Source: an uncultured delta proteobacterium (lineage in GTDB: Bacteria > Desulfobacterota > Desulfobacteria > Desulfobacterales > B30-G6). From it: a stretch of 64,000 bases of DNA. A program made the position numbers and the translations under genes. The notes beneath the pieces are model-generated. The model ran no database searches. It saw only the letters and a program-made list of their open reading frames with translations, and was not told the DNA's origin. The stretch spans positions 41,180 through 105,179 of the forward strand of contig CAWKCS010000020.1 of assembly GCA_963848165.1 (NCBI GenBank), written 5' to 3'. Shown here piece by piece: positions 39,430 to 62,348 of the stretch. Each line of letters opens with the position of its first letter. The first letter of the stretch is position 1.

Positions 39430-39458
39430 ATTGTTCATTGTGGCACCTGTTCCCGGAA

Positions 39459-41123: not shown

Positions 41124-41183
41124 GTGACCCTCCTGGTGGTTTCAGTTTGATGGGGGCGATATCGTTATTTGGAGATTAGGAAT

Positions 41184-44682: not shown

Positions 44683-44737
44683 GGGATTTTCCGGTTCAAT
44701 TGTTAATGGTTACGATTGGCTTTGTTTTCGTTTCCGA

Positions 44738-46500: not shown

Positions 46501-47661
46501 TCATTGATGACCTGGTCCTTTGGATCCGGGTATCTGCATAGGGATTTTGATGGTAAACCGAGAACCCTGACCCTGGACGGAATCCACGCTGATGGATCCG
46601 CCATGCTGAGCGATGATCTTGTTGGAAAGAAAGAGCCCCAGTCCGGTTCCCTCACGGCCTTTTGAAGAGTAAAAAAGTGAAAAGAGGTTGTCCCGGGTCT
46701 CGAAATCCATTCCGATGCCATTGTCACTGACGATAAAGAAAAGATGTTTTTTGTCATTCTTGACCGAAAACACTATTTTGTGCTTTTTATTCTGGTCGTT
46801 CCTGATACAGGCATCAATGGCATTTTCGAGAATGTTGATGAGGGCGGAGTGGACAAATCCTGCATCGATTTCGATTTTTTCGGCAGAGAAATCGAAATCT
46901 TTTACCAGCGCGATGTTCAGTGTTTTGCTCTTGGGTTCAACGACCCGGATGACATCATTGGCAAAGGTGAGAATGTCGACCTCGTCACGTCTCAGGTTTC
47001 TTTCTTTTGCGTAGAACAGGATGTCGCTCACCATCCGTCGAATCCGCTCCACCATCATTTTGAGAATATCGCTGCCTTCCTCGATCTTCACGAGGTCGTT
47101 GGCCTTCAATCCTGATCCGAGAAGATAGAGACCCCCATCCAGACCGGTCAACAGCCCCTTGATCCCGTGTGAAATAGATCCTACCATAAGACCCAGGTTT
47201 GAGAGATTGTCCTGGAGTTCGGTTTTTTCGCGGATGAGTCGTTCAAGGTTCTCGGTGTATTGCTGGAGTTGTTTGCGGGTGGTAATCTTTTCTTCGACCC
47301 TTTTCAGGGAGATTTCCAGCGCGTCCACATTGATGGGTTTGGTAATAAAATCGGTGGCGCGGTGTTTCAGACTTTTGATGGCCAGGTCCATATCACCATG
47401 ACCGGTGATCATGATGACTTCCGCTTCGGGATTTTCACGCTTGATTCGTTGCAGGAGCTCGATGCCATCCATGACGGGCATTTTGATATCGGTCAGGACA
47501 ATGGGGGGCATCTCCGACAGGAAGGTTTTCCATGCTGTTTCACCATTACCGGCTGTCAATACCTGATATCCCATGTCCGACAAGGTCATGCCGAGGACAT
47601 CACGGATGTCTTCTTCGTCGTCCACCAGGAGAATTTTTTTCTTGTCTTGGGATGGATTCAT
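46501..47661 (-). CDS. receiver-histidine kinase fusion (REC, HisKA-like, HATPase)
   Basis: 386 aa with ILLVDDEEDIRD...IVLTDIKMPVMDG...MITGHGD; H-box region VGSISHGIKGLLTGL; ATPase boxes NILENAIDA, DNGIGMD, GTGLGL. Confidence 0.85.
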   Translation of the reverse strand: MNPSQDKKKILLVDDEEDIRDVLGMTLSDMGYQVLTAGNGETAWKTFLSEMPPIVLTDIKMPVMDGIELLQRIKRENPEAEVIMITGHGDMDLAIKSLKHRATDFITKPINVDALEISLKRVEEKITTRKQLQQYTENLERLIREKTELQDNLSNLGLMVGSISHGIKGLLTGLDGGLYLLGSGLKANDLVKIEEGSDILKMMVERIRRMVSDILFYAKERNLRRDEVDILTFANDVIRVVEPKSKTLNIALVKDFDFSAEKIEIDAGFVHSALINILENAIDACIRNDQNKKHKIVFSVKNDKKHLFFIVSDNGIGMDFETRDNLFSLFYSSKGREGTGLGLFLSNKIIAQHGGSISVDSVQGQGSRFTIKIPMQIPGSKGPGHQ

Positions 47662-47676
47662 TTTCTTCTCTTAACT

Positions 47677-47838
47677 TTAAGCGGTAAGCTGTAAGCGATA
47701 AGCTCTAACGGCTTATAGCTTATCGTCTAGTTAGCTTTTCCCTTTGACTTCCAAATATCTGTTTGTATCCCCGCTGCTTGTCGAAAACCTCCAACATAAT
47801 AGCTTCAACGTCCGTCCGACCCTCAAACCCTTCACATT
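47677..47838. repeat. composite spacer (AGCT palindrome plus C-rich tail) between the sensor kinase and REC-kinase genes
   Basis: TTAAGCGGTAAGCTGTAAGCGATAAGCTCTAACGGCTTATAGCTTATCGTCTAGTTAGC ... AACCTCCAAC...GACCCTCAAACCCTTC. Confidence 0.7.
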
Positions 47839-47839
47839 C

Positions 47840-50107
47840 TTATTTTGGTACCGGAAACGACACAATAAAGCAGGTGCCCTGGTCCTTGTTGGGCAGGACC
47901 TCGATCATTCCCCCACAATCTTTGACAATGCCGTAGCTAATGGAAAGGCCTAAACCGGTACCCTTACCGACTTCCTTGGTGGTGAAAAATGGTTCGAAAA
48001 TCTTGTCTGCAACATGTTTTGGCATGCCGATGCCCGTGTCGCAGACCTCGGCGATGACCCGTCCGCCTTCCGTGTAGGTTCGGAGCGTAATGCGTTCTTC
48101 ATGACTGGTACGGCCGGCAGCCATTTTCTCCTCGATGGCATCCCTGGCATTGAGCAGGAGATTGATGATTACCTGTTCAAGGCGATCCGGGTCGGCATGG
48201 ATCTTGGGTAAGGTCTGGCTCATATCCCTGACCACCGCAATCCCTCTGACTTTCAGCTGCTGGCTGAAAATCTCGAATGCATTCACGAGGACGTCGTTGA
48301 TGGATATTTTCTCCATTGCCATGTCTGTTTTCCTGGCAAACTGCCGCATGTGGTTGATAATCCGGGCAGCCCGGTCGACATTGCTGTCCACTTTCGTCAG
48401 CATGGTATCCAGGATCTCTTTTTTAATGGTTTCGCCGCGGTTGATCTTCTTGATAAAAAAGCTACTGGCCGTCTTGATGACGGACAGGGGTTGATTCAGT
48501 TCGTGGGCAACGCCTGTGGCCATCTCGCCCAGTGTGGCCATTTTGCTGGCCTGGATTAGCTGTTGTTCCGCCTCAAGGCGTTTGGTGATGTCACTTGTGG
48601 TGACCAGGAGAACTTCTTGTCCGGAATATTCGGAGAGGGATACGCGAATATTGACATAAAGTTCCTTGCCGGTTTTTGTCAGATGTCTGGCCTGGTTAAT
48701 GATGGTATCTGTCTTTAGCCTAACGGCGTAGGTGTCCTTTTCTTCTTTACGGAACAGGTTCAGAAAGGAACTATTGATAAGGTCGCCGGTTGTAAATCCA
48801 TATACCGATTCTGCACTCATGTTACAGTCCAGGATCGTGAGGGTCTGGATGTCGAGTACAAATACTGGATTGGGTATGTTGCTGAAGATAGCATGATATT
48901 TCTTTTCCGACTTTTCCAGATCGACTTCGAGTTGCCGCCGTTCTGAAATATCGTGAGAGATTTCCATGGCGGCAACAACCTCGCCTTTATCGTTGACAAT
49001 GGGCGAGGTCCAGACGATCCAGTGTTTGATGCTGCCGTCCTTGTCGACACCGGTCTCTTCGGTTGAGTAAGATTTACCATCGGCAAATGTCCATTCGACC
49101 GGACAGCGCTCACACTTTTCCGAGCGGCCTTTGTAGGCGTGGTAGCAGAAATCCCCGGGAACGGGGTCGAAACGATTCGAAAACTCTTTATTATAACGCA
49201 GCAGCTTGAAATTTCGATTCTGGACGGTAATGATACAGGGTACCTGTTCAAACAGCTGCATATATTCATCCCGCTGCTTGTTGAGAGCTGTTTCATGCTC
49301 GGCGATTTCGGATCCCATTTTATCGATGGCATCCCCTAACTGCCCCATTTCGTCCTTCTGTGAAAGATGGGCTTTCCTGCCATAGTCACCCTTTGCAATA
49401 TCCCGGGTTCGGGTGATAAGTTTTTTGACGGGACGGTTGACAAACCGGAACACAAAGAAACAGATAATCGTAGACGTGAGAAGAAAAACGGAGATGGACA
49501 TGCCGATGATACCCCGTTGGAGTTGATACAGGCCTTTGTCTGTTTCTTTCAGAGAGACTACCAGGTCCAGGGCACCGAGAATTTTCTTTCCCTGGGGGTG
49601 AACATGACAGTCGTCGGTTGAACAACCCGGTTCGTTGCGGATAGGACTGATGATGCCGAGGAGTCGATATCCCCCGGCATGGTTGAAGATACGCGTTCTT
49701 TCATTCAGGGCGAGTTCGGAAAGGGGTGGTTCCGACCGGTGGCAGATGTCGCAGGCTTCGGCCTTGATGTTCGTGGACAGATCGACCTCGGATGGTCGGT
49801 TGGAAAATTTGATTTCCCCTGCTTTATTGTATATTCGGATATTCTCTATTTCAGGAAGCTGTCCGATGTTCATGATGATCTGGTTGATGTCGTCCCTGGA
49901 ATTGAGCATCATGGCGTAATGGGTTCCTAGCCGGATAGTGGTGGTAAGCCTGTCGGTGGTTCCCACAATATTTTGCATTTCTTTTTCCTTCTGATAGCGT
50001 ACATTAATGTAGGTCCAGATTGAAAAAGAAACGAGGAAGACAAGCCCCACGGTTAGCACAATTTTGGAGACAAGCCGGCTACGTATTTTGTTGAATAACG
50101 TCATCAT
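47840..50107 (-). CDS. sensor histidine kinase (periplasmic domain with CXXCH motif, HAMP, 2 PAS, HisKA, HATPase)
   Basis: TM1 at residues 15-35. The periplasmic region contains EACDICHRS and [10 protein letters not shown], followed by TM2/HAMP. H-box [13 protein letters not shown]; DTGIGMP; GTGLGL. Start is placed at MMTLFNK (50107), 7 nt after the upstream stop. Confidence 0.85.
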
Positions 50108-50114
50108 GAGCGGT

Positions 50115-53100
50115 TCACTGCTTTGGTTCAACGGGATAGACAGAGGAACCTGGTTGCCATGTGCTCTCAATGGCTGCATCGATCATGTCCAGCACCTGAT
50201 GATCGGCAAAGCCCTGGATCACGGAAGCACTGTTGGGGCATGCCGTGGCACAGTCGCCACATCCCTGGCACATGGCCGGGTTGACCACGATTTTCCCCAT
50301 GTCCGGATCCAGACGTCTTGCATGGTAAGGGCACGTATCGATACACCGTTCGCAAAGACTGCAGAGGCTGTGTCGAACCGAGGCGACGATTTTCCCGGCA
50401 GACAACTTTTCATGGGCGAGAATTCGTAATGCTCTTTGCGCGGCAGCGCCGGCGGTGGCGATGGTGTCCGGTATTGATCTGGGGGACAAGGCAATTCCGC
50501 AGCCAAAGACCCCTTCTTTGAGCGCGTCTACAGGGCGCCATTTGGATTCCGCTTCCAGAAAAAAACCGTCTTGATCCGCTTCCACGGCAAAGGCCTCCGC
50601 CAGGGTTGCCGGCAACTGCGGAACGATACCGGTGGCCAGAACCAGCAGATCGGCCTCTATCTCCAGAGGTCTATTCAGAATGGGATCTGTGACGGTAATT
50701 AAAAGGGGGGTATTCGCTTCCGTTGGAACGGTTACCCGGGGCGTGTTATCCAGGTCGTACTGGATAAAGATGACACCCGCCTTACGGGCTGCTGTGAAGT
50801 AGCTCTCGGTGAATCCAATGGTCATCATGTCACGGTAAAGAATGTAAACAGCTAACTGCGGGTTCGCTTTTTTCAGCTTTAAGGCGTGTTTCAACGATGT
50901 GGGGCAGCAGACCCGGCTGCAGTAATTCCTCGGTTCCTGCCTGGAATCCACACACTGAATCATCACCACGGAATCGAGTTTCTGCGGGTCGACATCACCC
51001 TGTACCAGACCCGATTCCAGTTCTTTCTGGGTCATGACGGCCTGACTGGTACCATAGCCATATGCACGGGTTGTGGCTTCGTTGCCGCCGGTTGCCAGAA
51101 TGGCGGTACCGTGTTGAATCGTTTCAATGGTTCCATCACCGCTTTCAATGGTTGTATAAAAATCACCCACTTCACCGAAAGCGGCCGTAATTTTTGTTTG
51201 CAGGTGGATATGCAGAAGCGGGTGCTTTTCTGCCGCCTGAGCGATTTGATGAAGATACGGCTCCAGAGAAAGCCCCTCAATGGTTTGCTGCAACCAGAGC
51301 AGGTTCCCTCCAAGTCTGTCACTTTGCTCCACAAGGTCCACAGGATACCCGTGATCCGCGATTGCCAGGGCGGCATGTATCCCGGCGATGCCGCCGCCGA
51401 CGACCAAGGCCCTTCTGGTGACAGGCAGCGAGGTTGTCGGTAGCGGATCCATGTTCTTTAACCGGGAAATGCCCATTTTTAAAGCTGATAGCTGATGGCT
51501 GATAGCAGATAACTGGTTTGTTTGGTTTTTGTTGTAAGCGAAGATCGGGGACATGATATCCACCACATCCATCATTTCGGCATCCAGATGAACCCGGCGG
51601 CTCAGCTCTCTCAATTTTCGGATGTAAAGATACGGATGGCATGCTCCTAGGAGGATTCGGTTGGGCTTGGAGGCTTCGATGATCCCGGTGAGTTCTTCCC
51701 ATCCTGTCGCCGTGCAGCATTGTCGGAGAAAAACGACCTTGTCCACACACGGATCCTGTTGGAGCTGGTGTGTCAATGCGTCGACGTCCAGGTGCTCCGA
51801 ATACTTGTTTCCACAATTGCAGACGGCTACAAGCATCTTCGGCGCTTCTCTTGAGACGTCCTGATTTGCCGGCTCAGAAAAAGATTCGTCTGAAAGACCG
51901 CCTCCCGCAGCATGAATGATCCGGGAGGCCTCCAGAGAAGCCGCAGATGCATACATCACGGATTCACTGATATCTTTGAGGCCTGAAAACGATCCGCCGG
52001 CCAGCACGCCCAATCGGTCGGTAGTCACCGGGGAAAGGGGTTCTGTCTGGATAAACCCCCAGGGATTCAGGGGTGCCTCGATCAGTTTTGATAATTCCTC
52101 GATACCACGGGCCGGGCGTTGTCCTACGGCCAGCACCACCAGATCGAAGGTTTCATTGTGGAGACGCCCATCGGTCTGGGCATATCGGATGAGCGGTTCT
52201 CCGGTCACGGCATCCGCTGTGATGGAATGGATGCGGGCCCTTTCAAATCGCACGCCGTGCTCCTGCTCTGCGCTGTCACGATAGCGCTGGAATGTTTTTC
52301 CGAAGGTGCGCATATCCATGTAAAAAATGGTGGTTTCAACGGGCGAGGGGTTCTTTTTTTTCACCAGCATGGCTTCCTTTATGGCGACCATGCAACAGAC
52401 GGAAGAGCAGTAATCTGCGTTGAACTGGACATCTCGAGAGCCGACACACTGTATCCAGGCGATCTTCTCAATTTTTTTACCATCATGGGGGCTCACCAGT
52501 CGGCCTTGTGTCGGCCCGGTGCCGCTCAGCATCCGTTCCAGTTCGAGACTGGTTATCACCCCGGGGGTTGTCCCGTAGCCGTATACATTTTTTGATTCGG
52601 CAGGGTCGAAATATGCCGTGCCACCAGAAAAAACGATGGCACCCACCTCAAGGTGTTGAATGTCACCGACTTCGATCTCCTCGTAAATCTGAACGATTTT
52701 CGCGATCATCCGTTCCGGATCAAATGGTTTCATCAGATAATCCTGGGCACCTATTTTCATGGCTTCCACGGCGGTTTCCACCGTGGCAAAAGCGGTCATC
52801 ATCAATACACACAGGTCCGGAAAATTTTCTTTTGCTTTCTTGAGGAGATCGACGCCATCCATTCCCGGCATCTTGATATCCGTCAACATGAGGTTAAACG
52901 ACGCCTTTGACAGCTTTTCCAGGGCCACGGATCCGGATTCAGCCACATCCACGAAGAAACCTTCTTCGTCCAGCCATTCCTTCAGGGAGTCGCGTACGAT
53001 CAGTTCGTCATCCACCACGAGGACACGAAACTCTTTCCGTTTCTCAAGTGACAGCTCGATGGCCTGGGTGGGACAAATCTTTTCGCATTCTCCACAGTGG

Positions 53101-53597
53101 TTGCAGGATGCAAGATCAATGATATAAGGGTTAGGGATCGTGTGGGGAACGGGCAGGTAGATTGCCTTGCGTGTTGTCAAGCCTTCATTGAACGTGTCGG
53201 GGATTTCCACCGGGCAAACCGCTTCACAGACGCCGCAGCCAACACATCGTTCGGGATCGACCCAGGTGGGCTTTTTACGCACGGATACCGAAAATTTGCC
53301 TGGTTCGCCGTCTATGGCCATGACTTCTGTGTTGAGAAGAATATCGATATTTTCGTGAAAAAGGCCCTTGCGTAGGCAGAACTGAGATGATTGGTCGCGT
53401 TTGACGAGGGGCAGCATCTTGCACATGCCGCAATGATTTGAGGGAAACTGATCGTCTAACTGGCTGAGAATTCCGCCCATATGCGGCTCACGATCGATGA
53501 GGGTAACACCGTAACCGGTTTCGGCCAGATCGAGTGCCGAGCGGATACCGCTGATGCCGGCGCCTACTACCAGCGCTTTACCCATTTTTTTACCCAT
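50115..53597 (-). CDS. tandem HdrA-like flavo-Fe-S protein with a complete receiver (REC) domain inserted in the first HdrA unit
   Basis: 1160 aa. ALVVGAGISGIRSALDL...FPSNHCGMCK...CVGCGVCEAVCPV...RKAIYLPVP...CNHCGECEKICPTQAIE. Then the REC segment: FRVLVVDDELIVRD...LMLTDIKMPGMDG...MMTAFATVETAVEAMKIGAQDYLMKPF. Then LEVGAIVFSGG...WIQCVGSRD...CCMVAIKEA. Then a second unit: LVAVCNCG...[15 protein letters not shown]...IQCVDSRQ...CSLCERCIDTCP...CQGCGDCATACP. Confidence 0.85.
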   Translation of the reverse strand: MGKKMGKALVVGAGISGIRSALDLAETGYGVTLIDREPHMGGILSQLDDQFPSNHCGMCKMLPLVKRDQSSQFCLRKGLFHENIDILLNTEVMAIDGEPGKFSVSVRKKPTWVDPERCVGCGVCEAVCPVEIPDTFNEGLTTRKAIYLPVPHTIPNPYIIDLASCNHCGECEKICPTQAIELSLEKRKEFRVLVVDDELIVRDSLKEWLDEEGFFVDVAESGSVALEKLSKASFNLMLTDIKMPGMDGVDLLKKAKENFPDLCVLMMTAFATVETAVEAMKIGAQDYLMKPFDPERMIAKIVQIYEEIEVGDIQHLEVGAIVFSGGTAYFDPAESKNVYGYGTTPGVITSLELERMLSGTGPTQGRLVSPHDGKKIEKIAWIQCVGSRDVQFNADYCSSVCCMVAIKEAMLVKKKNPSPVETTIFYMDMRTFGKTFQRYRDSAEQEHGVRFERARIHSITADAVTGEPLIRYAQTDGRLHNETFDLVVLAVGQRPARGIEELSKLIEAPLNPWGFIQTEPLSPVTTDRLGVLAGGSFSGLKDISESVMYASAASLEASRIIHAAGGGLSDESFSEPANQDVSREAPKMLVAVCNCGNKYSEHLDVDALTHQLQQDPCVDKVVFLRQCCTATGWEELTGIIEASKPNRILLGACHPYLYIRKLRELSRRVHLDAEMMDVVDIMSPIFAYNKNQTNQLSAISHQLSALKMGISRLKNMDPLPTTSLPVTRRALVVGGGIAGIHAALAIADHGYPVDLVEQSDRLGGNLLWLQQTIEGLSLEPYLHQIAQAAEKHPLLHIHLQTKITAAFGEVGDFYTTIESGDGTIETIQHGTAILATGGNEATTRAYGYGTSQAVMTQKELESGLVQGDVDPQKLDSVVMIQCVDSRQEPRNYCSRVCCPTSLKHALKLKKANPQLAVYILYRDMMTIGFTESYFTAARKAGVIFIQYDLDNTPRVTVPTEANTPLLITVTDPILNRPLEIEADLLVLATGIVPQLPATLAEAFAVEADQDGFFLEAESKWRPVDALKEGVFGCGIALSPRSIPDTIATAGAAAQRALRILAHEKLSAGKIVASVRHSLCSLCERCIDTCPYHARRLDPDMGKIVVNPAMCQGCGDCATACPNSASVIQGFADHQVLDMIDAAIESTWQPGSSVYPVEPKQ
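51481..51513. repeat. AGCT-type short-unit repeat inside the HdrA-REC coding region
   Basis: AAAGCTGATAGCTGATGGCTGATAGCAGATAAC encodes the linker ...QLSAISHQLSALK... between the two HdrA units. It has the same flavour as the intergenic AGCT palindromes. Confidence 0.6.
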
Positions 53598-53633
53598 GAT
53601 AGACCTCCTGGGAATTTGACGTTCGTCAAATTC

Positions 53634-53699
53634 GGCTCTTAGCTCTTGGCTGTTAGCATTTAGCGGCTACGAGCTACGAGCAAAGAGCTAACAGCTAAT
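53634..53699. repeat. AGCT-type palindromic spacer between the Fe-S subunit gene and the HdrA-REC gene
   Basis: GGCTCTTAGCTCTTGGCTGTTAGC...GCTACGAGCTACGAGCAAAGAGCTAACAGC. It is preceded by the tight palindrome GAATTTGACG-tt-CGTCAAATTC (53611-53632). Confidence 0.75.
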
Positions 53700-54840
53700 T
53701 GTTCAGTCCAACAATTTCAGTAAATTCATCTTCCTTGAATTCAGACAGGGGCGGTTTTTCTTCCAGACTTCTGCCGGCCTCGTAGTCGAATGCCTGCTGG
53801 GTTTTGTGTGCGATCGTGCGAAACAACGGCATGATCGCTATGTCGTTGGGGCAGGCATTGGTGCATTGTCCACATCCGACGCAGGCAGTGCTCATGTGTG
53901 CCAGGCGGGTGATGTGGTACAGCAACGTGTCCGTCGGCATTTTTACAGCCCCTTTTTTTCTGGCCCATTGCAGGTACTGAATGGGTTCGTGGTCGAAAAC
54001 ATCGGTCACGAAAACACACTCTCTGCAATAACAGACAGGGCATGCAACCCGACAATTGTAGCAGTTCACACAACCGGCCAGATAATCATTCAGTTTCTCA
54101 AGGCTGCCGATCTTGTCTCCGACGTCAGCGAACATATTGTCTCGAAATGTGGTCCTTTCCGAAATCAAGCGGTCGATTTCTTTCCTGCGCGATGCAGGTT
54201 CTTCTGCCGTTGCGAGATCGAGGTCTTCCAGGAGACGGCCTCCCTTGTCCGTGAGTGACTGGACCAGGATTTGCCGACCGATATCCACACCGAAAAAACC
54301 GATGCTGATGTCGGCACCTTCGGCTACGGGGAGTTCACAGGACCGACATGCCTGTGTCAGTTCAATGCCATCCATGTCGGCGCTCTTTCCGGAAAGCACC
54401 TGGGCGGCAAATGTATTCGTGGCCTCGTCCCCGTTTTCTCCTGACCAGTTCAGATAATCCCTGTTTCCTAATGCTCCCGGGCAGTCAATGCCGATGAGTA
54501 TCAACTCGTCCGTGCGCGCTTGCTTGAGTTTGACCAGTTCCACAAAGGCTCTGATTTCGCATGGTCGCATCACGGCTGCTATGTTTCCCCCCGAGGGTTT
54601 GCGTGTGAGCCTCGATACGATTTTGGCACTGTTCATTGGAAATGCCGGGGACAGGGGGTCCACACCGTTCAATTGGTCCGGATCCGTCAACAGGGTCGGC
54701 ATGACCATCTTTTTCGTTGGAACCCTCCAGGGAGCCAGGATGGCGCTGATGTCCTCCTTTTCCAGGATATTTTCGAACAGCACCCTGAGCGCACCAAGCA
54801 AATCCTGATCTTTAACGTCTATTTTGGCCGTTTTTATCAT
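53695..54840 (-). CDS. Fe-S subunit (FrhB-like N-domain plus CX2CX2CX3CPxCYC dicluster), paralog of 31550-32498
   Basis: 381 aa with MRPCEIRAFVELVKL...LIGIDCPG, CVNCYNCRVACPVCYCRECVF and CVGCGQCTNACPNDI. Confidence 0.6.
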   Translation of the reverse strand: MIKTAKIDVKDQDLLGALRVLFENILEKEDISAILAPWRVPTKKMVMPTLLTDPDQLNGVDPLSPAFPMNSAKIVSRLTRKPSGGNIAAVMRPCEIRAFVELVKLKQARTDELILIGIDCPGALGNRDYLNWSGENGDEATNTFAAQVLSGKSADMDGIELTQACRSCELPVAEGADISIGFFGVDIGRQILVQSLTDKGGRLLEDLDLATAEEPASRRKEIDRLISERTTFRDNMFADVGDKIGSLEKLNDYLAGCVNCYNCRVACPVCYCRECVFVTDVFDHEPIQYLQWARKKGAVKMPTDTLLYHITRLAHMSTACVGCGQCTNACPNDIAIMPLFRTIAHKTQQAFDYEAGRSLEEKPPLSEFKEDEFTEIVGLNN

Positions 54841-54865
54841 TCATACCTCCTGGGACAACCTGGCG

Positions 54866-54975
54866 GTTGTCGGTTCTTAGCCTTGGCTTAGCTCTTGGCT
54901 CTTAGCCGGCTAACAGCTAAGAGCCAAGAGCTAAGACTTACCCTCGACCCTTCAACCCCTCCAACCCTTCCTCAC
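54866..54975. repeat. composite spacer: AGCT palindrome with a perfect 20-bp stem plus a C-rich CCCTCRAACCC tail
   Basis: CTTAGCTCTTGGCTCTTAGC (54887-54906) is the exact reverse complement of GCTAAGAGCCAAGAGCTAAG (54916-54935). It is followed by CCCTCGACCCTTCAACCCCTCCAACCCTTCC. Confidence 0.9.
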
Positions 54976-55397
54976 CCCACCCTCTGCAACCTGGCCTGGC
55001 TGGGTCCCAGGGCCTTGATCTGGGCCACAAGCTCCTGAAGGGTTTCGGCCAGCAGAACACCATCGCTGGCCGCTATCCATGTGAGCCTCAGTCGTTCAGG
55101 CTCAAATCCGAAACTGGGCAGGATCTCTTTCAGCAGCTTGATGCGCCGGCGGGCTTTGAAATTTCCATTGATGTAATGGCAGTCGCCGGGATTGCAGCCG
55201 CTCACAAGAACCCCATCAGCACCTTCCAGCAGTGCTTTGATGACATACTTGGGGTCCACCATTCCACTGCACATCACCCGGATGATTTTTATGTTCGGCG
55301 GATACGAGAGGCGCGATGTGCCGGCCAGGTCTGCCGCCGTATAGGTGCACCAGTTGCAGAAGAAGGCCAGGATGGTGGGTTCAAAATTGTCGTTCAT
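54972..55397 (-). CDS. MvhD-type subunit (Cys version)
   Basis: 141 aa with ILAFFCNWCTYTAADLAG...IRVMCSGMV...VLVSGCNPGDCHYINGN. Confidence 0.85.
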   Translation of the reverse strand: MNDNFEPTILAFFCNWCTYTAADLAGTSRLSYPPNIKIIRVMCSGMVDPKYVIKALLEGADGVLVSGCNPGDCHYINGNFKARRRIKLLKEILPSFGFEPERLRLTWIAASDGVLLAETLQELVAQIKALGPSQARLQRVG

Positions 55398-55409
55398 AAC
55401 GGATCTCCT

Positions 55410-55757
55410 CTATTTGCGCTGCGCGCGTCATTTGGCCTTGCGGGCCGATATTACGCCTGCGGCTGTCATTTGCGCTTGCGCGATATTAGTGCTTTGCACG
55501 TCATTTGGCCTTCGGCCGACATTTGCGCTTCGCGCGTCATTAGCCCTGCGGGCGATATTACGCCTGCGGCTGTCATTTGCGCTTCGCGCGTTATTTGGCC
55601 TTCGGCCGACATTTACGCTTCGCGCGTCATTAATTGTTGTTTACGGCCGATAGCTTTCAGTTACAATAAATGACGCGAAGCAAATGACAATCAATGACAG
55701 CCGCAGGCGTAATGACGGCCGAAGGCCAAATGACAGCGAAGCGTAATGACCTTATGT
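55410..55757. repeat. array of ~13 contiguous 17-20-nt units (consensus GTCATTTGCGCTTCGCGC), then a 21-nt spacer, then ~5 units in inverted orientation
   Basis: The units read directly, e.g. GTCATTTGGCCTTCGGCC / GACATTTGCGCTTCGCGC / GTCATTAGCCCTGCGGGC / GATATTACGCCTGCGGCT. The unit at 55447 recurs identically at 55554 (~108-nt super-period). The right side reads ATGACGCGAAGCAAATGAC...GGCCGAAGGCCAAATGAC. Confidence 0.9.
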
Positions 55758-55810
55758 TTAAAGATGTTGACGCGTAATAATTCATGACCAATTCTCATGC
55801 AGAGCATTGT

Positions 55811-58800
55811 CTACCCCGCCAATAGTCCTTCAATTTCAGAAAAAATCTGCTTGTCCGTAAAATGTCGCACCTTGGCTGCGCCGCTGGGACAGTATCCGGC
55901 ACAACTGCCGCACCCTTTACAGATGGCTTCGTTGACCTCGCTGATGCCTTTGCGTTCGTTGAATTCGATAGCCGTATAGGGGCAGAGGCTGATACACACC
56001 TGGCATCCGATACAGATATCCGGGTCGATGGTGGAGATCATCGGTGACACCGCCACCTGGCCGGAAGCGCTGAGTGAAAGTGCTTCGGCGGCGGCCCCTT
56101 TGGCCTGGGCAACGGTATCCGGAATATCTTTGGGCCCCTGGCAGGTGCCGGCCAGGAAGACGCCGCTCGTGGCGGTGGAGACGGGTTCGAGCTTGGGGTG
56201 TTCTTCCTGGTAGAAACCATCACTTCCTGTGGAAATACCGAAGATTCTGGCCACATCGTTGACATCGGGACGTGGCTCCATGGCCGTACACAGAATCACC
56301 ATTTCCACGGGAATTTTCATTAAACTGTCGGAGAGGGTGTCTTCTGCGGTCACCCACAGCATGTCGTCGACTTCTTCTACACGGGAGGCTTTGCCGCGGA
56401 TCATGCGAACACCTTCGCTCTGGACACGCTTATAGAATTCTTCATACCCTTTGCCGAAGCAGCGCATGTCGATATAGAAATTGTAGATCTGAGTTTCGTG
56501 GCCACATTTGTCCTTGAGAAGATGGGCGTACTTCAAGGCATACATGCAGCATGTGCGGGAACAGTACTCATGATGGTTGATATCACGACTGCCGATACAA
56601 TGCAGGATAGCCACGCTTTTGGGTGGTTCGGTGAATTTGAGACGATCGTCAGGGTCGCGTTTCAGAAGCCGGCCGCTTGTGGGTCCGGTGGCATTCGACA
56701 GGCGTTCGAATTCCAGATTGGTGAAGACGTTGGCATACCGGCCGTAGCCGTATTGTGTCATGGGGGTCGGATCAAGGGGATCGAAGCCCGTGGCAACAAT
56801 GATGGAACCCACATCGATTTCCTGTATTGTTTCCGTCATGTCATGATTGATGGCCTTTGCCTCACAGGCATCCACGCACAGTTTACATTCACAGCACCCG
56901 CCGCAATCCAGGCATCTGAGAGGCTTCCGCTCTTGCCGCTTCCTCTGAAAAATTATGATCGACCTCATGGAAGCTCTTCACGCGCTGTTGTGGGTCCAGT
57001 TGGGTGGATACGACGCGGGGGGTTGCCTCGACATCTTCGGGGACGGGCTTCCAGTTGTTTCCCGGTATTGAGTCAACATCCGCTTGCTCAAGGATTTGAC
57101 GGCGGTCTTTTTCCCTGAGATAGCGATGGATGGCCGCCACAGCCTTGTGGCCGGCGGCAACAGCCTCGATGACCGTTGCCGGTCCGGTGACGGCATCACC
57201 GGCGCCGAATACATGCGGGAGACTGGTCTGCATTGTTGCGGGATTGACCTTGATGGTATTTCGCGTGGTCAATTCCAGACCGGGTTCTTTTGTGGCCCAG
57301 GACACATCGATTTTTTGTCCGATGGCAGGAATGACGGCATCGCATGGTACGACATATTCGGAGCCCTTTACCGGCACGGGACGTCGGCGCCCGCTGGCAT
57401 CCGGAGGTCCGAGTTCCGTCTGGATGCAGGTACATCCGGTTACATGCCCATCCTTGCTCTGTATGCCCACAGGTGCCGTGAGAAAGGAGAGTTCAATGCC
57501 TTCCTCCCGGGCCCCGTTGATTTCTTCCTTGTAGGCAGGCATTTCCCGTTCGGAACGTCTGTAGACCACCGTGACATGTTCGGCCCCGAGACGTTTGGCT
57601 ACCCGGGCTGCGTCTATGGCTACATTTCCGCCGCCGATGACGATGACCTGCTTTCCCGGTGCTTTTCGACTTCCCAGGTTGATTTCCCTCAAAAACCCGA
57701 CGGCATCGATGACCTCTGCAGCCTGGTCTTCCCCCTGGATCTGCATCTGGAGGGAGCCGTGTGCCCCGATTCCCAGAAAAACAGCTGAAAATCCTTTTGA
57801 CTCAAGATCCGACAGGGACAGGTCCCGGCCGAAGCGTACATTCGTTTCAACGTCGATCCCGTGCTGAAGGAGATGTTGGATCTCATTGTCCAACAGCTTT
57901 GCCGGCAATCGATAATCGGGGATGCCCACACGGAGCATCCCTCCCAGTTGGTCGAGTGCTTCGAACAAAGTGATGCGGTAGCCTTTGAGTCTCAGGTAAT
58001 AGGCCACGGTGAGGCCGGCGGGTCCGGAACCGATGACGGCGATTTTTTCCGGCCGATCTTCGATCTCCGGAAGGGGCAGGTCGGTGAAATCCACCTGGTC
58101 GGCGGCAAAGCGTTTCAACTCACGGATGGCGACCGGGGTGTCCACATCGACCCGACGACAGGCTTTTTCACATGGTGCCGGACAGACCCGGCCAAGGGTC
58201 CCGGGGAGGGGTATCTTCTCCATGATCAGTTTCACGGCCTCCCGGTATTGCCCGGTTTTGATGAGGGCGATATAGCCCTGGACGTTCGTTCCCGCAGGAC
58301 ATGTCTGAACACAGGGAGCCCGATCATATTTATCGATGCAGTAGGTGATGGGAACGGCCTGGGGAAATGGCCGGTAAATTGCTCTTCTCATCTTGGTGCC
58401 CACATCCCATTCATTGGGGAAAGCAACGGGACACACTTTTTCACACTCGCCGCACCCGGTGCATTTCGGTTCGATATAACGTGCTTTACGGTGGACCTTT
58501 ACTTTGAAGTTGCCGATGAAGCCACTGACATCCACGATCTCACTGTAAGACAAAAGCTCGATGTTGGGCTCCTGCCCCACAGAGACCATTTTTGGTGTTC
58601 CGATGCAGGCCGCACAGTCCAGGGTTGGAAAGGTTTTGTCATACTGGAGCATGTGACCACCGATGGTGGGTGCCCTTTCAACCAGGTATACCTTGAAACC
58701 GGCCTTGGCGATATCGAGAGATGCCTGCATACCGGCGATGCCGCCGCCTACCACGAGCGTGTTTGTGCAGACAGGGAATTTTGCCGGTGTTAAATCCTGC

Positions 58801-59192
58801 TGGTGAACAACCCGCATAATGCCTGCACCGACCAGGATTTTGGCTTTTTGCGTTGCTGCTTCCTCCTCCAGGGTGACCCAGGAAACATGCTCCCGAACAC
58901 TGACCATGTGGAAGGCCTTGTAGGGGTTGAGGCCGGCGCGCTGGCAGGCAGCCCGAAAGGTTTTTTCATGCATCCGGGGAGAGCAGGATGCCACGACCAC
59001 GCGCGTGAGATGGTGGGACCGAATATCATTTTCAATCAATTCCTGACCCGGGTCGGAACACATGAACAGATAATCTCGTGATACAGCTACATTCGGGAGG
59101 GTCGCAACATAAGCGGCAACCTCTTCCACCCGGACACGGTAAGCGATATTGATGCCGCAGTGGCAGATATAGAATCCGATGCGTTCAGGCAT
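55811..59192 (-). CDS. HdrA-like protein with a GltD/NfnB-like NAD(P)H-FAD module inserted (HdrL-type); apparent frameshift around 56915-56930
   Basis: ORF 56889-59210: MPERIGFYICHCGINIA...[14 protein letters not shown]...FPTLDCAACI...CTGCGECEKVCPV...RRAIYRPFPQAVP. Then CPAGTNVQGYI...IAVIGSGPAGL...VIVIGGGNVAIDAAR...GAGDAVTG. ORF 55811-56968 carries the rest of HdrA: RCLDCGGCCECKLCVDAC...VGSIIVATGFDPLDP...LHCIGSRD...CCMYALKYA...CIGCQVCISLCP...CKGCGSCAGYCP. The two frames abut at ...EEAARAEA|. Confidence 0.8.
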
Positions 59193-61485
59193 GCAGGACC
59201 TCCTGGTCAAGTTTTAAATTGATATGAACAGGCATGGAGTGTTCGTATCTCGTTTCGATGGATTGGATCAGCAACTCGGCAATATCTTGAACGACGATTC
59301 GGTCTTGGAAACCAAGGGTCATGATGGCTTCCTGGAGCATCCGTGTGCAATAGGGACAGGCCGTGGCGATCACGCCGGCTCCGGTATCCAGGGCCTGTTC
59401 TATTCGCAGTTCAGCCAGTCGGCCATTGGAAGAAGGTTCACCGAATGCACCCCCACCTCCGCCCCCGCAGCAGAGGCTGTGATGACGGTTATCAGGCATC
59501 TCGACAAGGCTGAGGCCCGGGATGCTCCTCAAGATACGGCGCGGTGCGTCATAGACGCCGTTGTGGCGTCCCAGGTAACAGGGATCGTGAAAGGTGACAC
59601 GGTTTTTTACCTCGAATCTGGGGGTCAGATCTCCTTTCGAGACCAGTCGATCCAGGAGCACGGTGTAGTGTTCGATTTCCATGTTCGTCGGTGCGTCTGC
59701 ATAGGCTTTTCGAAATGTGTCAAAGCAATGGGGGGAGGTCGTGAGGACTCTTTCAACGCCCCGACGTTCAAAAAGCGACATATTTTCATTTGAGAGGGTC
59801 GAAAAAAGGTCCCCAGCCCCTAACCTGAAGGCGGGGTCTCCACAGCAGCGCTCTTTTGTACCGAGGGTGCCGAAGGAGACGCCTGCCTGGATCAGCAGTC
59901 TGAGCAGGGCCCGGCCGGCATGGCTGCATTTCTGGGATGGCGTGTCGTCATATGCCGTGGTGCAGCACGTGAACAGGCAGTAGGCGTGTTCCGGATTGAA
60001 ATCGGGTATATCGATATCCTCTGCCCAGCCGGATCGTTGTCCGGGGTTCCCTCCCCAGGGATTTCCTCTCTCTGCCAGGTACTCCAGCGGCATTTCGAGG
60101 CGTGCGGGGGCTGTTCCCTGTTTGTTCTGGATTTCCCGGATGGATCTTATCACGTCGATAATATCGATACCCCGGAGGCAGGCGTCCCCGCAGGCATTAC
60201 AGGTGACGCAGTCCCATGCGGCGTTATCAACGGTTTTTTCGGTACCGGTATTCAGACCGATGTGACGAAGAATCTGTCTGGGGCTGTAATCCGATACCCG
60301 GTTCCAGGGGCAGGCAGCGGTGCAGGTGCCGCACTGCACACAGATCATGAACATCTCTCCAATGAGCGCTTTGACGTCTTCGACGTTGACGGAAGAGTGT
60401 TTTACGGCTTTTTCCCGAACCGTTGTCAAAAACAGGGCCAGCGGACGGTAGAAGAGGTGCGACCACTTTCCAAAAGGGACCTCGATGACCAGCATGGGTA
60501 CGGCGATGGCCAGGTGGATGACGTACATGACATAGGTGCCCATGGGCCACCCGGCCAGGCGGACCAGGTGCATGATAATACCGGTCAAGGTCGTTAAAAA
60601 TAGCAGGATCAGAAAAAGCCAGTCGGAAAGTTCTGAAAAGCGGTGAATGGCTTCTTGTTTCCTGCGCCGGCTCTGGAACATTTCGATGGTAATGAACAGG
60701 ATGACGCCGGTGGCATAGTATCCGAAGAGACTCGAGAAATGCCAGCTGCTGTCATCCACCTGAAACCAGCGGATGAATACGATAATCAGCGTCATCATGG
60801 TCATGTAGCCGGATACCAGCAGAAAATGTTTCAACCAGCGGCTCTTGTCCTCACCGCATTCCCGCCAGCGCTTCTGGGTTGCAAAGTGGAGCACAAAGGC
60901 TTTTGCTTCGGTGAGATAAAGACGGAAGGGTACGGACGTGTCGTTCATGATGAATCGGAACATTCTGAATGCATTTGACAAGAGAAAGAGTGTCAACACA
61001 GCCGCCATGCTCAGATCGCCGATTTCGATCCACAGGACCGGCACAAAGGTGTTGACGGCAACGCGGTCGGTAATGATGGGGCCGTGAAAAAACCAGAAGA
61101 GGGCGATGATGCCGAATGCCACCACGCCCAGGGCACCCAGTTCCCATGCTTCGGAGATATAGAATTTTTTGGCGAGACCGGTCCAGTCGTACTGGGTGGT
61201 CAACCACCGGCGGGTTGCCATCATGGTTTCTGCGGGTTCGGCCCCCCGGGGACAATCTAAATTGCATTCACCACAATAGTAACAGAGCCATGGGACCGGT
61301 GATTTGAGCAGCTTGTCCCTTAAACCCAGCTGAAGATAGCGGTATATCTTTCGGGGAAACGTATCTGTACCGGTGGAGAGTGGGCACGATGCGCTGCAGG
61401 TGCCGCACTGCATGCAGATTTCCATGTCCCTGGCTCCGAATTTCGCTACTTCCTGGTAGAGTTCCGGGTCGACGCTGTTGTACAT
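59185..61485 (-). CDS. fusion of a QmoC/HdrC+E-like module (2x4Fe-4S plus membrane b-type domain) with an HdrD-like module (2x4Fe-4S plus two CCG domains)
   Basis: CMQCGTCSASCP...CYYCGECNLDCP, then ~6 TM helices. Then CVQCGTCTAACP...CVTCNACGDAC. Then CCTTAYD/CCGDPAF and PCYLGRH/CCGGGGG/CPYC. Start is placed at MYNSVDP (61485), which has the RBS AGAGAGG. Confidence 0.8.
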   Translation of the reverse strand: MYNSVDPELYQEVAKFGARDMEICMQCGTCSASCPLSTGTDTFPRKIYRYLQLGLRDKLLKSPVPWLCYYCGECNLDCPRGAEPAETMMATRRWLTTQYDWTGLAKKFYISEAWELGALGVVAFGIIALFWFFHGPIITDRVAVNTFVPVLWIEIGDLSMAAVLTLFLLSNAFRMFRFIMNDTSVPFRLYLTEAKAFVLHFATQKRWRECGEDKSRWLKHFLLVSGYMTMMTLIIVFIRWFQVDDSSWHFSSLFGYYATGVILFITIEMFQSRRRKQEAIHRFSELSDWLFLILLFLTTLTGIIMHLVRLAGWPMGTYVMYVIHLAIAVPMLVIEVPFGKWSHLFYRPLALFLTTVREKAVKHSSVNVEDVKALIGEMFMICVQCGTCTAACPWNRVSDYSPRQILRHIGLNTGTEKTVDNAAWDCVTCNACGDACLRGIDIIDVIRSIREIQNKQGTAPARLEMPLEYLAERGNPWGGNPGQRSGWAEDIDIPDFNPEHAYCLFTCCTTAYDDTPSQKCSHAGRALLRLLIQAGVSFGTLGTKERCCGDPAFRLGAGDLFSTLSNENMSLFERRGVERVLTTSPHCFDTFRKAYADAPTNMEIEHYTVLLDRLVSKGDLTPRFEVKNRVTFHDPCYLGRHNGVYDAPRRILRSIPGLSLVEMPDNRHHSLCCGGGGGGAFGEPSSNGRLAELRIEQALDTGAGVIATACPYCTRMLQEAIMTLGFQDRIVVQDIAELLIQSIETRYEHSMPVHINLKLDQEVLHA

Positions 61486-61574
61486 GATACGGCCTCTCTT
61501 ACGTTGTAACAACTCTGTGTGATTCTTCTCCTGGGAATGTTCCCGGGCCCTGTGCTATGGCCATGTATATAAAG

Positions 61575-61686
61575 ATAGCTGGGAAGCTAGGACGCCGGGA
61601 GGCTGGAATGCTGCTCTCCGCCTAAAGCTGTCAGCTACCCTTGTATCACCCTCCGCCCCTCCAAACCCTCCAACCCTCCAACCCTC
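61575..61686. repeat. composite spacer (AGCT-containing segment plus a C-rich CCCTCCAACCCTCCAACCCTC tail)
   Basis: Read directly. The 15-mer CCCTTGTATCACCCT (61638-61652) recurs as its reverse complement at 63889-63903. Confidence 0.75.
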
Positions 61687-61690
61687 ATAT

Positions 61691-62110
61691 TTATACATGC
61701 CCCAGAGCGGACAGCTCTTGGACCGTCGTCAGCAGAATCTCGGCTTCGACCGGTTTTTCCATGAACGTATCGATCAATTCATGGGGCTTCACATTGCCTG
61801 TAAGCCATACAGGTTATGGCATTTCAGAAATGTGTCTTTATCTAAGGTAGAGAGCATGATGACCGGTATCCGACTGAGGGTTTCGTCCTGCTTGAGGCTG
61901 TTGATACAGGCGGATGCCGCTTTCTCCCGGCATCATCATGTTGAGGATGATAACGGAAGGGTGTTCTGCGGCAGCCTTTTTGAGCCCATCTGCTTTATTG
62001 CTCGCCGTAAGCGGATGAAACCCGCTGGCGTTCAAAAGATTGAAAAGGAAAATTCTGGTGTCCGGTTCATCGTCCACCACAAGTATTTTTTTTACTGTTT
62101 CTGCAGACAC
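61691..62110 (-). CDS. single-domain CheY-like receiver; two apparent frameshifts (about 61896-61897 and 61797-61798)
   Basis: MSAETVKKILVVDDEPDTRIFL...VIILNMMMPGESGIRLYQQ | LKQDETLSRIPVIMLSTLDKDTFLKCHNLYGLQ | GNVKPHELIDTFMEKPVEAEILLTTVQELSALGHV*. The three frames tile a normal REC fold. Confidence 0.7.
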
Positions 62111-62332
62111 CCCATAAGCCTCCTACCTAAGATGAGCGTTTTAAATGATTTGATTTGTTTGAATTCTTAAAATTTGAAACGCTCAACTTAGGTTCCAGAA
62201 AAAATGCTTGTAACCCGGAAACTCACGATCCTGAAATACTCGGGTTAGACGGTTTCGGTCTGTCAGAGAGGAATGCAGACAGGTCAATATCAGACCACTG
62301 TTGCTAAAATGGGTTTTCTGTTCCGATGAATT

Positions 62333-62348
62333 AGCATAGAGCGTGCCA
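62333..62348 (-). promoter_or_regulatory. sigma54 (-24/-12) promoter of redox/signalling operon B
   Basis: The minus strand reads CTTGGCACGCTCTATGCTAA. That is TGGCACG-N4-aTGCT with correct GG/GC spacing. It lies ~210 nt upstream of the CheY-like start. Confidence 0.75.

Follow-up and report, generated by a model that had tools for sequence, protein, structure and literature searches.

The analyzed DNA, a stretch of 64,000 nt of contig CAWKCS010000020.1 of an uncultured delta proteobacterium (hereinafter, the window), contains a unit of eight genes on the minus strand at positions 46501–62348. Judging from its domain content, the unit encodes a flavin/Fe-S complex of the heterodisulfide reductase (Hdr) type, with NAD(P)H input through HdrL, the MvhD and FrhB-like proteins as connectors, and a tandem HdrA as its core; a QmoC::HdrD fusion protein is predicted to supply CCG disulfide-reductase sites and a quinone-type membrane anchor. 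The core HdrA subunit carries an embedded receiver (REC) domain. An earlier sequence-only reading of this DNA had proposed that the signalling proteins of the unit act on the enzyme complex rather than on transcription. Its observations were partly confirmed and its interpretation was partly supported. The REC is canonical, its phospho-acceptor D240 is invariant, and syntenic kinases are encoded in 26–27 of 37 related loci, in agreement with signalling aimed at the enzyme, but the promoter and enhancer of the unit are also conserved and activators are encoded in the cluster in relatives. Direct phospho-control of the Hdr enzyme, acting together with transcriptional control, is regarded here as an evenly balanced proposition.

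Receiver Domain within the Tandem HdrA

The protein in question and its receiver are encoded as follows.

50115–53597, minus strand: tandem HdrA, 1160 aa, with an embedded REC (PF00072, 105.7 bits)
52683–53027, minus strand: REC domain within the tandem HdrA, residues 191–305 (PF00072)

The match with PF00072 covers residues 192–301, with a score of 105.7 bits vs. a cut-off of 30.2, and the best PDB matches of this region were receivers of the NtrC family, FixJ, and CheY. Among 68 genomic orthologues, the phospho-acceptor D240 was found in 68/68 sequences, D196 in 65, D197 in 64, T268 in 65, and K290 in 66; in a separate set of 64 protein clusters, all five residues were invariant. The REC of HdrA is thus predicted to be a receiver under selection to be phosphorylated. 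In total, at least 120 full-length protein clusters of tandem HdrA with an identity of at least 59% were found, all of them with PF00072. In the databases, these proteins are labelled “response regulator”, “FAD-dependent oxidoreductase”, or “heterodisulfide reductase subunit A”.

The phmmer comparison of the tandem HdrA with the solved HdrA structures 8rvu/5odc (E = 3e-117) revealed four collinear blocks, which are arranged around the REC in the following way.

Residues 7–184: HdrA residues 153–320, start of the flavin adenine dinucleotide (FAD) domain and the inserted ferredoxin domain
Residues 191–305: REC
Residues 315–456: HdrA residues 326–465
Residues 582–758: N-terminal Fe-S domain of HdrA and start of the second FAD domain
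Residues 964–1144: end of the second FAD domain and the C-terminal ferredoxin domain

The first module of the protein consists of the FAD and inserted ferredoxin domains, and the second one includes the N-terminal Fe-S, FAD, and C-terminal ferredoxin domains. In the AlphaFold (AF2) model (predicted local distance difference test score, pLDDT, 74.9), Foldseek detected similarity with HdrA with E = 2e-41 and a template modelling (TM) score (target) of up to 0.87. Both halves contain the Cys motif CxGSRD...C...CC (C384/C397/C401/C402 and C882/C893/C897/C898), which is invariant in the alignment. Scores against the NCBIfam HdrA families were below the cut-offs (678, 563, and 538 bits vs. 1100, 1400, and 1300, respectively), and by its sequence the protein is classed as HdrA-like, not as an orthologue of the methanogen enzyme.

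The REC insertion point corresponds to HdrA residues 320–326, directly past the inserted ferredoxin domain. Compared with REC-less relatives, the insertion is clean: it is flanked by the end of the ferredoxin domain (“CPTxAIxL”) on one side and by the following FAD-domain strand on the other. The tandem HdrA representatives at 50% identity fell into three kinds: many proteins of ~1000 aa have no REC, ~14 clusters have it, and some proteins of ~1500 aa (P0158, P0166, P0175, and others) carry a GltD module at the REC insertion point. In HdrL, the GltD module occupies the corresponding position within a single HdrA, and the loop past the inserted ferredoxin domain appears to be a hot spot for domain insertion. 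In a neighbour-joining tree constructed with the REC masked, the REC-bearing proteins formed one clade in which one REC-less and one degenerate-REC member were nested. This tree indicates a single gain of the REC, followed by loss or decay in rare cases.

The REC-less loci L083 and L086 encode a stand-alone receiver, which was considered as an unfused counterpart of the HdrA REC (Rosetta-stone relationship). This assignment was dropped, since this receiver is nearest to the CheY-like protein of the first gene (31% identity, 69 bits, vs. 33%, 50 bits, with the HdrA REC).

Composition of the Unit

Domain calls were made with Pfam and NCBIfam profiles on the open reading frames (ORFs) of the window. 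Two related loci are used below as references: L081, a Joint Genome Institute (JGI) metagenome contig, with a tandem HdrA 81% identical to that of the window, and L001, a 90%-identical contig of a metagenome-assembled genome. In the direction of transcription, the remaining features of the unit are the following.

61697–62110, minus strand: CheY-like single-domain receiver, first gene (three-frame translation; PF00072 in the intact L081 orthologue)
59185–61485, minus strand: QmoC-like membrane domain and HdrD-like module with two CCG domains, QmoC::HdrD (Pfam CCG x2, Fer4_8 x2, Nitrate_red_gam)
55811–59192, minus strand: HdrL, that is, HdrA with an inserted GltD-like NAD(P)H/FAD module (Pfam Fer4_20 and Pyr_redox_2)
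54972–55397, minus strand: MvhD/FlpD (PF02662 FlpD, 179.5 bits)
53695–54840, minus strand: FrhB/FdhB-like flavin/Fe-S subunit (PF04432, 31 bits vs. a cut-off of 23.3, and Fer4)
47840–50107, minus strand: membrane histidine kinase HK7, encoded after the tandem HdrA (Pfam HAMP-PAS-PAS-HisKA-HATPase)
49598–49753, minus strand: pair of periplasmic haem-c motifs of HK7 (CDICH and CSTDDCHVH)
46501–47661, minus strand: REC-histidine kinase RHK8, last gene (Pfam REC, H-box, and HATPase)

The ORF listing and the Pfam and NCBIfam searches confirmed the order and domain content of the eight genes proposed earlier, and three receivers and two kinase transmitters are indeed encoded. In NCBIfam, seven of the eight unit proteins have no family above the cut-off. 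The tight junctions were confirmed as well: the overlap ATGCCTGA at 59185–59192, where the ATG codon of hdrL overlaps the stop codon of the preceding QmoC::HdrD gene, and the 7-nt gap at 50108–50114 between the hdrA stop codon and the HK7 start codon.

In the QmoC::HdrD protein, the QmoC half contains two [4Fe-4S] sites and a six-helix membrane domain, and the HdrD half contains two [4Fe-4S] sites and two CCG domains. Its similarity with the NCBIfam qmoC profile covers positions 4–358 of 360 with a score of 215.7 bits (cut-off 300), and the C-terminal half matches TfrB/HdrC. According to these domains, the protein is an “HdrF”-type membrane anchor combined with a disulfide-reductase module. 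Among the relatives, QmoC::HdrD and HdrC+HdrB are mutually exclusive; since QmoC::HdrD, encoded upstream of HdrL, replaces the soluble HdrC+HdrB in the window, the complex is predicted to be membrane-bound here. The MvhD protein is a [2Fe-2S] electron-transfer subunit that docks on HdrA. The unit does not qualify as a Qmo complex: the QmoC score is below the cut-off, and the neighbouring genes encode HdrL, MvhD, the FrhB-like protein, and the tandem HdrA.

Conservation of the Cluster

A genome scan with one genome per species detected at least 578 Desulfobacterota relatives of the REC-bearing HdrA, and the species-level genomes that carry it include those of cultured organisms, such as Desulfonema limicola and a Desulfosarcina species. 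Eighty loci from Desulfobacterales, Syntrophobacterales, and Desulfovibrionales were retained, and the window proteins were mapped onto them. The counts below refer to the 37 loci with full flanks. The conserved gene order is [activator]–CheY-like–HdrL–MvhD–FrhB-like–HdrA(REC)–HdrC–HdrB–HK7–RHK8.

MvhD: 37/37 loci
FrhB-like: 37/37 loci
HdrL: 30/37 loci
HdrC+HdrB: 27/37 loci
QmoC::HdrD fusion (HdrF): 8/37 loci, never with HdrC+HdrB
HK7: 27/37 loci
RHK8: 26/37 loci
CheY-like: 22/37 loci
PAS-type sigma54 activator: 18/37 loci

Co-occurrence of the genes in related genomes had been suggested as a check on the sequence-only reading, and it was observed as a conserved order across the 80 loci, with MvhD and the FrhB-like protein present in every locus counted. 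From these comparisons, the REC-HdrA cluster appears to be common in nature and not an oddity of this genome.

The same data bear on the explanation that the kinase and hdr genes are mere neighbours that belong to separate transcription units and have unrelated functions. The spacers between several unit genes are 97–413 nt long, with 178 nt ahead of RHK8, and internal promoters would be compatible with the consensus scans: within the unit, counts of sigma70 consensus sites and terminators were near the shuffled expectation and gave no usable boundary. The position and orientation of the kinase genes vary too, HK7 being inverted in L031 and L078. These points are set against synteny that extends across the three orders, with at least one of HK7 and RHK8 present in 29/37 loci and other kinases next door in the remaining eight. 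Moreover, only 7 nt separate hdrA from HK7, no second sigma54 site was found within the unit in a scan allowing up to two mismatches, and a REC within HdrA demands a kinase. The explanation by mere neighbourhood is, on balance, very improbable.

Locus L090 (Desulfonema magnum CP061800, 8004059–8027490) has a different composition. The REC-HdrA gene is followed there by HdrC and HdrB alone; HdrL, MvhD, the FrhB-like gene, and kinases were not found within 10 kb, and a transposase gene is located at the locus edge. This locus shows that the cluster can break up while REC-HdrA stays. Desulfonema magnum was set aside as an experimental model, since its REC-HdrA is an orphan with HdrCB.

Histidine Kinases and the CheY-Like Protein

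The HK7 kinase consists of a periplasmic domain, HAMP, a four-Cys PAS domain, a second PAS domain, HisKA, and HATPase. The periplasmic CXXCH feature reported for it earlier was confirmed and comprises two haem motifs, CDICH (CxxCH) and CSTDDCHVH (Cx3-4CH), in the periplasmic loop between two membrane helices. A CxxCH and Cx3-4CH pair is typical of cytochrome c3. In 37/37 orthologues, both motifs retain all of their Cys and His residues, and the same is true for C291, C321, C332, and C335 of the first PAS domain and for H535 of the H-box. The region around the second haem motif gave 22.1 bits with PF21563, which is under the gathering cut-off of 27, and the similarity of the periplasmic domain with PDB 3B47 was weak (E = 1.1). 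In RHK8, D58 was found in 27/28 and H165 in 28/28 orthologous sequences.

The Cys-patterned PAS of HK7 (residues 291–335, ~49100–49240) has the pattern C-x29-C-x10-C-x2-C-P. Cys-patterned PAS domains are also present in the kinase at 43482–44360 and in the PAS activators of L023, L029, L043, L051, and L072 (CREIFLGVPCLVSCPF). By its sequence pattern, the domain found around these redox clusters is a candidate redox sensor that binds an Fe-S cluster or a metal.

In the CheY-like protein, the acceptor position is occupied by Asp in 20 mapped loci, by Asn in seven of them as well as in the window and L081, and by Glu in one (L072). The Asn-type loci are L002, L003, L026, L037, L040, L043, L061, and L081, and the acceptor is not Asp in about one third of lineages. 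The replacement of the acceptor Asp by Asn or Glu at this frequency suggests that the CheY-like protein is drifting to a phosphorylation-independent pseudo-receiver.

Sigma54 Promoter, Enhancer, and Activators

Upstream of the first gene, two regulatory elements were identified.

62333–62348, minus strand: sigma54-type −24/−12 element TGGCACgctctATGCT (consensus match with one mismatch; ~225 nt upstream of the receiver gene)
62424–62530, no strand assigned: enhancer-like upstream activating sequence (palindrome and TGTTGC half-sites)

A sigma54-type promoter element ahead of the unit, as proposed by the earlier analysis, was confirmed in the sequence. It is intergenic, with GG and GC spaced by 10 nt, and resembles TGGCAC-N5-TTGCW with one mismatch. 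Between 28 and 64 kb, the minus strand has just two sigma54-type sites with up to two mismatches, both intergenic, and TGGCACgctctATGCT is one of them. In 21/28 related loci, a sigma54-like site precedes the receiver gene at a distance of not more than 400 nt, with a background of 0.039 per 400 nt. The enhancer contains the palindrome CACAACATATGTTGCA-tttat-TGCAACATATGTTGTG at 62424–62460 with perfect 16-bp arms and three further (A)TGTTGC(A) half-sites at 62503–62530; the palindrome and the half-sites are conserved in L081. Among the 7-mers preceding the sigma54 site, TGCAACA showed the strongest enrichment and was found in 18/21 regions at about −90/−104 and −160/−200. It was not present upstream of the other sigma54 promoter of the window (41184–41199). 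Given the conservation of the promoter and enhancer, the unit is predicted to be under transcriptional control too.

The activator of the PAS type, encoded within the cluster in 18/37 loci, is a protein of ~580 aa with the PAS-PAS-AAA+-helix-turn-helix (HTH) architecture. It has a Cys-rich first PAS domain and no REC, and this is the commonest activator class in the conserved cluster. The receiver gene directly follows the activator gene in 13 loci, in 12 of them on the strand of the unit. In L003, L004, L013, L037, and L044, a histidine kinase and an NtrC-type regulator adjoin the cluster. The PAS and NtrC-type activators were also considered as domain-swapped orthologues, which was ruled out, since their AAA+/HTH regions are ~40% identical and the HTH motifs differ.

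In the 64-kb window, no PAS activator of the cluster type was found. An NtrC-type sigma54 activator is encoded at 41821–43254, 3 kb downstream of the unit; its REC is 39% identical to the HdrA REC, and its AAA+/HTH region is 36–40% identical to either class of cluster activators. This protein is unlikely to be the activator of the unit. The promoter beside its gene lacks the TGTTGC enhancer, which suggests that it serves its own downstream operon. In L037, the GcvH-fusion gene is divergent from the receiver gene as in the window, and an NtrC-type gene lies just past that neighbour, at a position that would fall past the window end (64000). The statement of the sequence-only reading that no DNA-binding output is encoded is correct for 46501–62348; beyond these limits it does not hold, given the NtrC-type activator 3 kb downstream and the relatives with activators inside the cluster.

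These data raise the alternative that the signalling serves transcription only. In this case, HK7 and RHK8 would feed an NtrC-type sigma54 activator, encoded just past the window end as in L037 or at 41821–43254, or the CheY-like protein would modulate a PAS activator; the HdrA REC would be a phosphate sink, a competitor, or a feedback element. The conserved promoter and enhancer, the presence, in most relatives, of an activator gene within or next to the cluster, and the receiver gene directly following it in 13 loci fit this explanation. It is also in line with the likely sharing of a kinase, given the 45–55% identity between the REC of adjoining NtrC-type regulators and that of HdrA, with the histidine kinase and receiver retained in REC-less clusters, and with the precedent of DVU2394 acting on the adh-hdr operon of Desulfovibrio vulgaris (PMC3333781). 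A sink, however, needs neither a precise insertion in a catalytic subunit nor five catalytic residues kept across at least 68 divergent orthologues. In addition, the most frequent cluster activator has no REC, and the enhancer motif is missing from the promoter beside the NtrC gene of the window. Exclusively transcriptional signalling is therefore considered rather unlikely.

Proposed Mechanism

The preferred reading, in which the enzyme is controlled directly and its genes are controlled at the level of transcription, can be described as a sequence of steps. An enhancer-binding protein encoded outside the window, which is of the PAS-PAS-AAA+-HTH or NtrC type in relatives, would switch on transcription. 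The HK7 kinase would sense the redox state via its two periplasmic c-haems and the cytoplasmic four-Cys PAS domain and, directly or through RHK8, would phosphorylate Asp240 of the HdrA REC. Phosphorylation would probably shift the position or docking of the Fe-S arm formed by the inserted ferredoxin domain, and this shift would gate or redirect electrons among NAD(P)H, ferredoxin, and the disulfide/quinone acceptor. An effect on electron flow is proposed because the REC adjoins the inserted ferredoxin domain and occupies the site where the NAD(P)H module is located elsewhere in the family. The CheY-like protein, with its Asn acceptor in this lineage, would more likely be a phosphorylation-independent partner. 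Since the commonest activator has PAS inputs and no REC, the two-component proteins of the conserved cluster are left without an obvious transcriptional receiver.

A more specific form of this proposal is a cascade from HK7 to RHK8 that phosphorylates the HdrA REC, moves the Fe-S arm, and gates bifurcation or confurcation, so that hundreds of species of sulfate reducers and syntrophs could switch the complex between NAD(P)H, ferredoxin, and disulfide/quinone routes in a matter of seconds. It is put forward tentatively, as a possibility well short of an even chance.

Several observations weigh against direct control of the enzyme. Two of the eight unit genes (the receiver gene and HdrL) are frameshifted in the window, and the confidence of the AF2 model is moderate (the model was used just to confirm the HdrA fold). 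The REC-less relatives L083, L085, and L086 retain kinases and the stand-alone receiver, which indicates that the link between the two-component proteins and the cluster is independent of the embedded REC and older than its insertion. Desulfonema magnum has REC-HdrA and HdrCB with no kinase within 10 kb. The NtrC-type regulators beside clusters, found in loci without a PAS activator, have a REC 45–55% identical to that of HdrA, and the kinases may therefore mainly serve transcription. With this level of identity, a shared kinase with both DNA-binding and enzyme outputs is at least as likely as control of the enzyme only; in some genomes, the kinase is probably shared with a DNA-binding regulator whose receiver is near-identical.

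In sulfate reducers and syntrophs, organisms that live near the thermodynamic limit, Hdr-like complexes are considered to act as cytoplasmic hubs for balancing NAD(P)H, ferredoxin, quinone, and DsrC. A built-in receiver with its own predicted redox-sensing kinases provides a testable handle, consisting of one Asp and two kinases, on how these organisms change from a bifurcating to a confurcating mode and back. If the proposed control of the enzyme is true, two-component signalling would not be confined to gene expression and motility but would also govern energy-conserving electron transfer directly, and a core energy-conserving redox enzyme would for the first time be known as the immediate target of such a system. 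Even if it is not true, a widespread regulon has been defined by a sigma54 promoter, a TGTTGC/GCAACA enhancer, and a PAS or NtrC-type activator, and its cluster is one that has been detected in proteomes and is functionally uncharacterised.

Comparison with Known Systems

REC domains fused to effectors that do not bind DNA and act post-translationally are known from regulators of the CheB, PleD, RpfG, and RssB type, in which an N-terminal REC controls a hydrolase, a cyclase, or an adaptor. In contrast, the HdrA REC is inserted internally, into a redox subunit that has several cofactors and belongs to an energy-metabolism complex. The qmo genes are typically located next to aprAB. The unit resembles QmoABC in that the N-terminal half of the fusion protein covers the whole QmoC profile (two [4Fe-4S] sites and a NarI-like membrane domain) and has HdrA-like flavoprotein partners; it differs in that the QmoC-like half is fused to an HdrD-like CCG module, which Qmo lacks. 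Moreover, no QmoA/QmoB orthologues were found in the unit, and no AprA/AprB-type domain was found among the window ORFs scanned.

The names HdrL, for an HdrA/glutamate-synthase fusion, and HdrF, for a membrane HdrD, originate from the genome paper of Desulfobacterium autotrophicum HRM2 (PMC2702500), where the legend to Figure 4 already names regulatory genes next to hdr loci, those for a response regulator, a histidine kinase, and a CheY-like protein. The “HdrABC/HdrL” proteins of Syntrophobacter fumaroxidans (Sfum_0819–0824) were detected in proteomes only with sulfate present, which points to conditional expression (PMC5947623). The HRM2 hdr locus VIII and Sfum_0819–0824 share the order HdrL–MvhD–FdhB-like–HdrA with the window (PMC2702500, PMC5947623). 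In the published HdrL/HdrABC clusters, HdrC/HdrB come right after HdrA, whereas in the window QmoC::HdrD is located upstream of HdrL instead; most of the 80 related loci have the exact HdrL/HdrABC core order with HdrC/HdrB. The likeness between the window and HdrL/HdrABC is one of gene order and published descriptions, by which the unit is assigned as a membrane-anchored variant of this named, biochemically uncharacterised cluster. In uncultured Syntrophobacter, loci L035 and L041 contain the cluster with a REC-bearing HdrA. Neither PMC2702500 nor PMC5947623 mentions a receiver in HdrA, a di-haem kinase, or a sigma54 enhancer.

The MvhADG-HdrABC and Fdh-Hdr complexes of methanogens (5ODC, 7BKB, 8RVU) share with the unit the HdrA fold, the Cys motifs, MvhD, and an FdhB/FrhB-like subunit. 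Unlike them, the unit encodes no catalytic subunit of a hydrogenase or formate dehydrogenase and has NAD(P)H input via the GltD module; its HdrA is a covalent tandem with a REC after the inserted ferredoxin domain. The Geobacter c-haem sensors GSU0582/GSU0935 (3B47/3B42; PF21563) likewise have a periplasmic CxxCH between two membrane helices, whereas HK7 has two haem motifs and its output is a histidine kinase, not a chemoreceptor.

The adh-hdr (FlxABCD-HdrABC/adh) operon of D. vulgaris is regulated by the response regulator DVU2394 (PMC3333781). This system is similar to the unit as an NADH-linked Hdr-type complex of a sulfate reducer under two-component transcriptional control (PMC3333781). 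Its control is purely transcriptional and is exerted via a DNA-binding regulator, whereas in the unit the enzyme itself contains a receiver, and a REC is absent from the activator most often found in the cluster.

The regulation had been called apparently undescribed by the sequence-only reading. This is upheld in part: the literature searched contained no description of a receiver in HdrA or of a di-haem kinase tied to an Hdr cluster, with an earlier mention possible in reviews outside the search, but the core HdrL/HdrABC cluster was already named. The unit can be placed with two known kinds of systems, namely, Hdr-like complexes and REC-enzyme fusions.

Integrity of the Reading Frames

Comparison of the receiver gene with its intact 144-aa orthologue from L081 in a DNA alignment revealed three +1 insertions at ~61897, ~61806, and ~61789, with all three frames used. 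The HdrL gene is split into ORFs of 773 aa and 385 aa by an extra T at ~56919, as seen against L001; the L081 orthologue is unbroken (1126 aa) and passes NCBIfam PRK12771 (544.8 > 516). Selenocysteine read-through as the cause of the split was ruled out, since the two ORFs are in different frames and the relative lacks one T.

Whether the cluster is a decaying pseudogene cluster in this organism, with the receiver and HdrL inactivated by the three insertions and the extra base, was assessed from the surrounding genes. Lesions of the same type break the kinase at 43250–44700 twice (~44350 and ~43600), a single-base insertion is located at ~46410–46425 in the MamS/MamX-like gene at 46000–46470, and the divergent GcvH-fusion gene is frameshifted near 63230. 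In total, at least nine single-base insertions occur in ~21 kb across six genes that are intact in L081, where the gene order is the same as in the window and all genes are intact. The frameshifted genes otherwise encode proteins with 88–93% identity to intact orthologues and contain no stop codons or deletions. Since this picture is typical of an unpolished assembly, the frameshifts are probably assembly errors and not decay, and a pseudogene cluster is improbable.

Intergenic Repeats and Neighbouring Genes

The earlier analysis had described the gaps that are not tight as filled with hairpin repeats, and structured repeats were indeed found in the larger gaps. Two features outside the eight genes are listed here.

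55412–55750, minus strand: repeat array of 18-nt units in the hdrL–mvhD spacer (Tandem Repeats Finder, period 18, 12 copies)
62843–63875, plus strand: divergent neighbour with the sigma54-like site TGGTATtgtttTTGCT (62843–62858) and a Cys-rich/GcvH-like gene (start at ~62927)

In each of the ~12–15 units of the hdrL–mvhD array, AATGAC precedes a mini-hairpin, C(GAA)G or C(GCA)G. The units in the 5′ part are reverse-complementary to those in the 3′ part, and the RNA could form one long imperfect hairpin (fold −176 kcal/mol, z = −7.8). The copy number differs in the close relative L001 (L001:5245–5560). Other intercistronic spacers open with G-rich (GGAGGGTT)n runs at 61649–61684 and 54941–54982 (both on the minus strand) and at 47815–47840, which fit the G-quadruplex pattern in the mRNA sense (five in the window vs. 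0.9 in shuffles). Hairpins of AGCTTA/GCTAAG-type 7-mers then follow at 54876–54936 and 47678–47725. The same short repeat families occur in other intergenic regions (1684–1719, 23982–24103, and 28407–28469).

The divergent GcvH-fusion gene encodes a Cys-rich N-terminal domain and a GcvH-like domain, in which the lipoyl-lysine position is apparently not Lys (by eye). The site TGGTATtgtttTTGCT is identical in L081, and the GcvH-fusion gene is there a single one of 333 aa. Copies of this gene are found near the hdr cluster in at least six other loci (L004, L013, L037, L063, L079, and L080), often beside a histidine kinase and NtrC-type pair, and its product may carry substrates for the Hdr complex or be one of its co-regulated partners.

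A second redox operon that begins with a receiver gene is located at 29408–41199 on the minus strand behind the sigma54-like site 41184–41199. Its first protein (554 aa) has a REC at both ends and two Cys-rich repeats (GFCETGNMVCDIFKKLGATCKAGTKT..CPQLAKK); NuoE-like, NuoF-like, 2Fe-2S/HdrA-like (1085 aa), and Fer4 proteins and an FAD/NAD-binding subunit follow. Its own pair of a PAS kinase and NtrC is encoded upstream (41821–44700).

The plus-strand gene at 46000–46470, convergent with RHK8, codes for a small secreted protein that carries a signal peptide. PF26390 (MamS_MamX) is listed in the database entry of its L081 orthologue, but a direct Pfam scan of this orthologue did not return that family. 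The gene is conserved in its place between the unit and miaA in L001, L002, and L081, and in the window the frameshift extends it 165 nt into the RHK8 gene.

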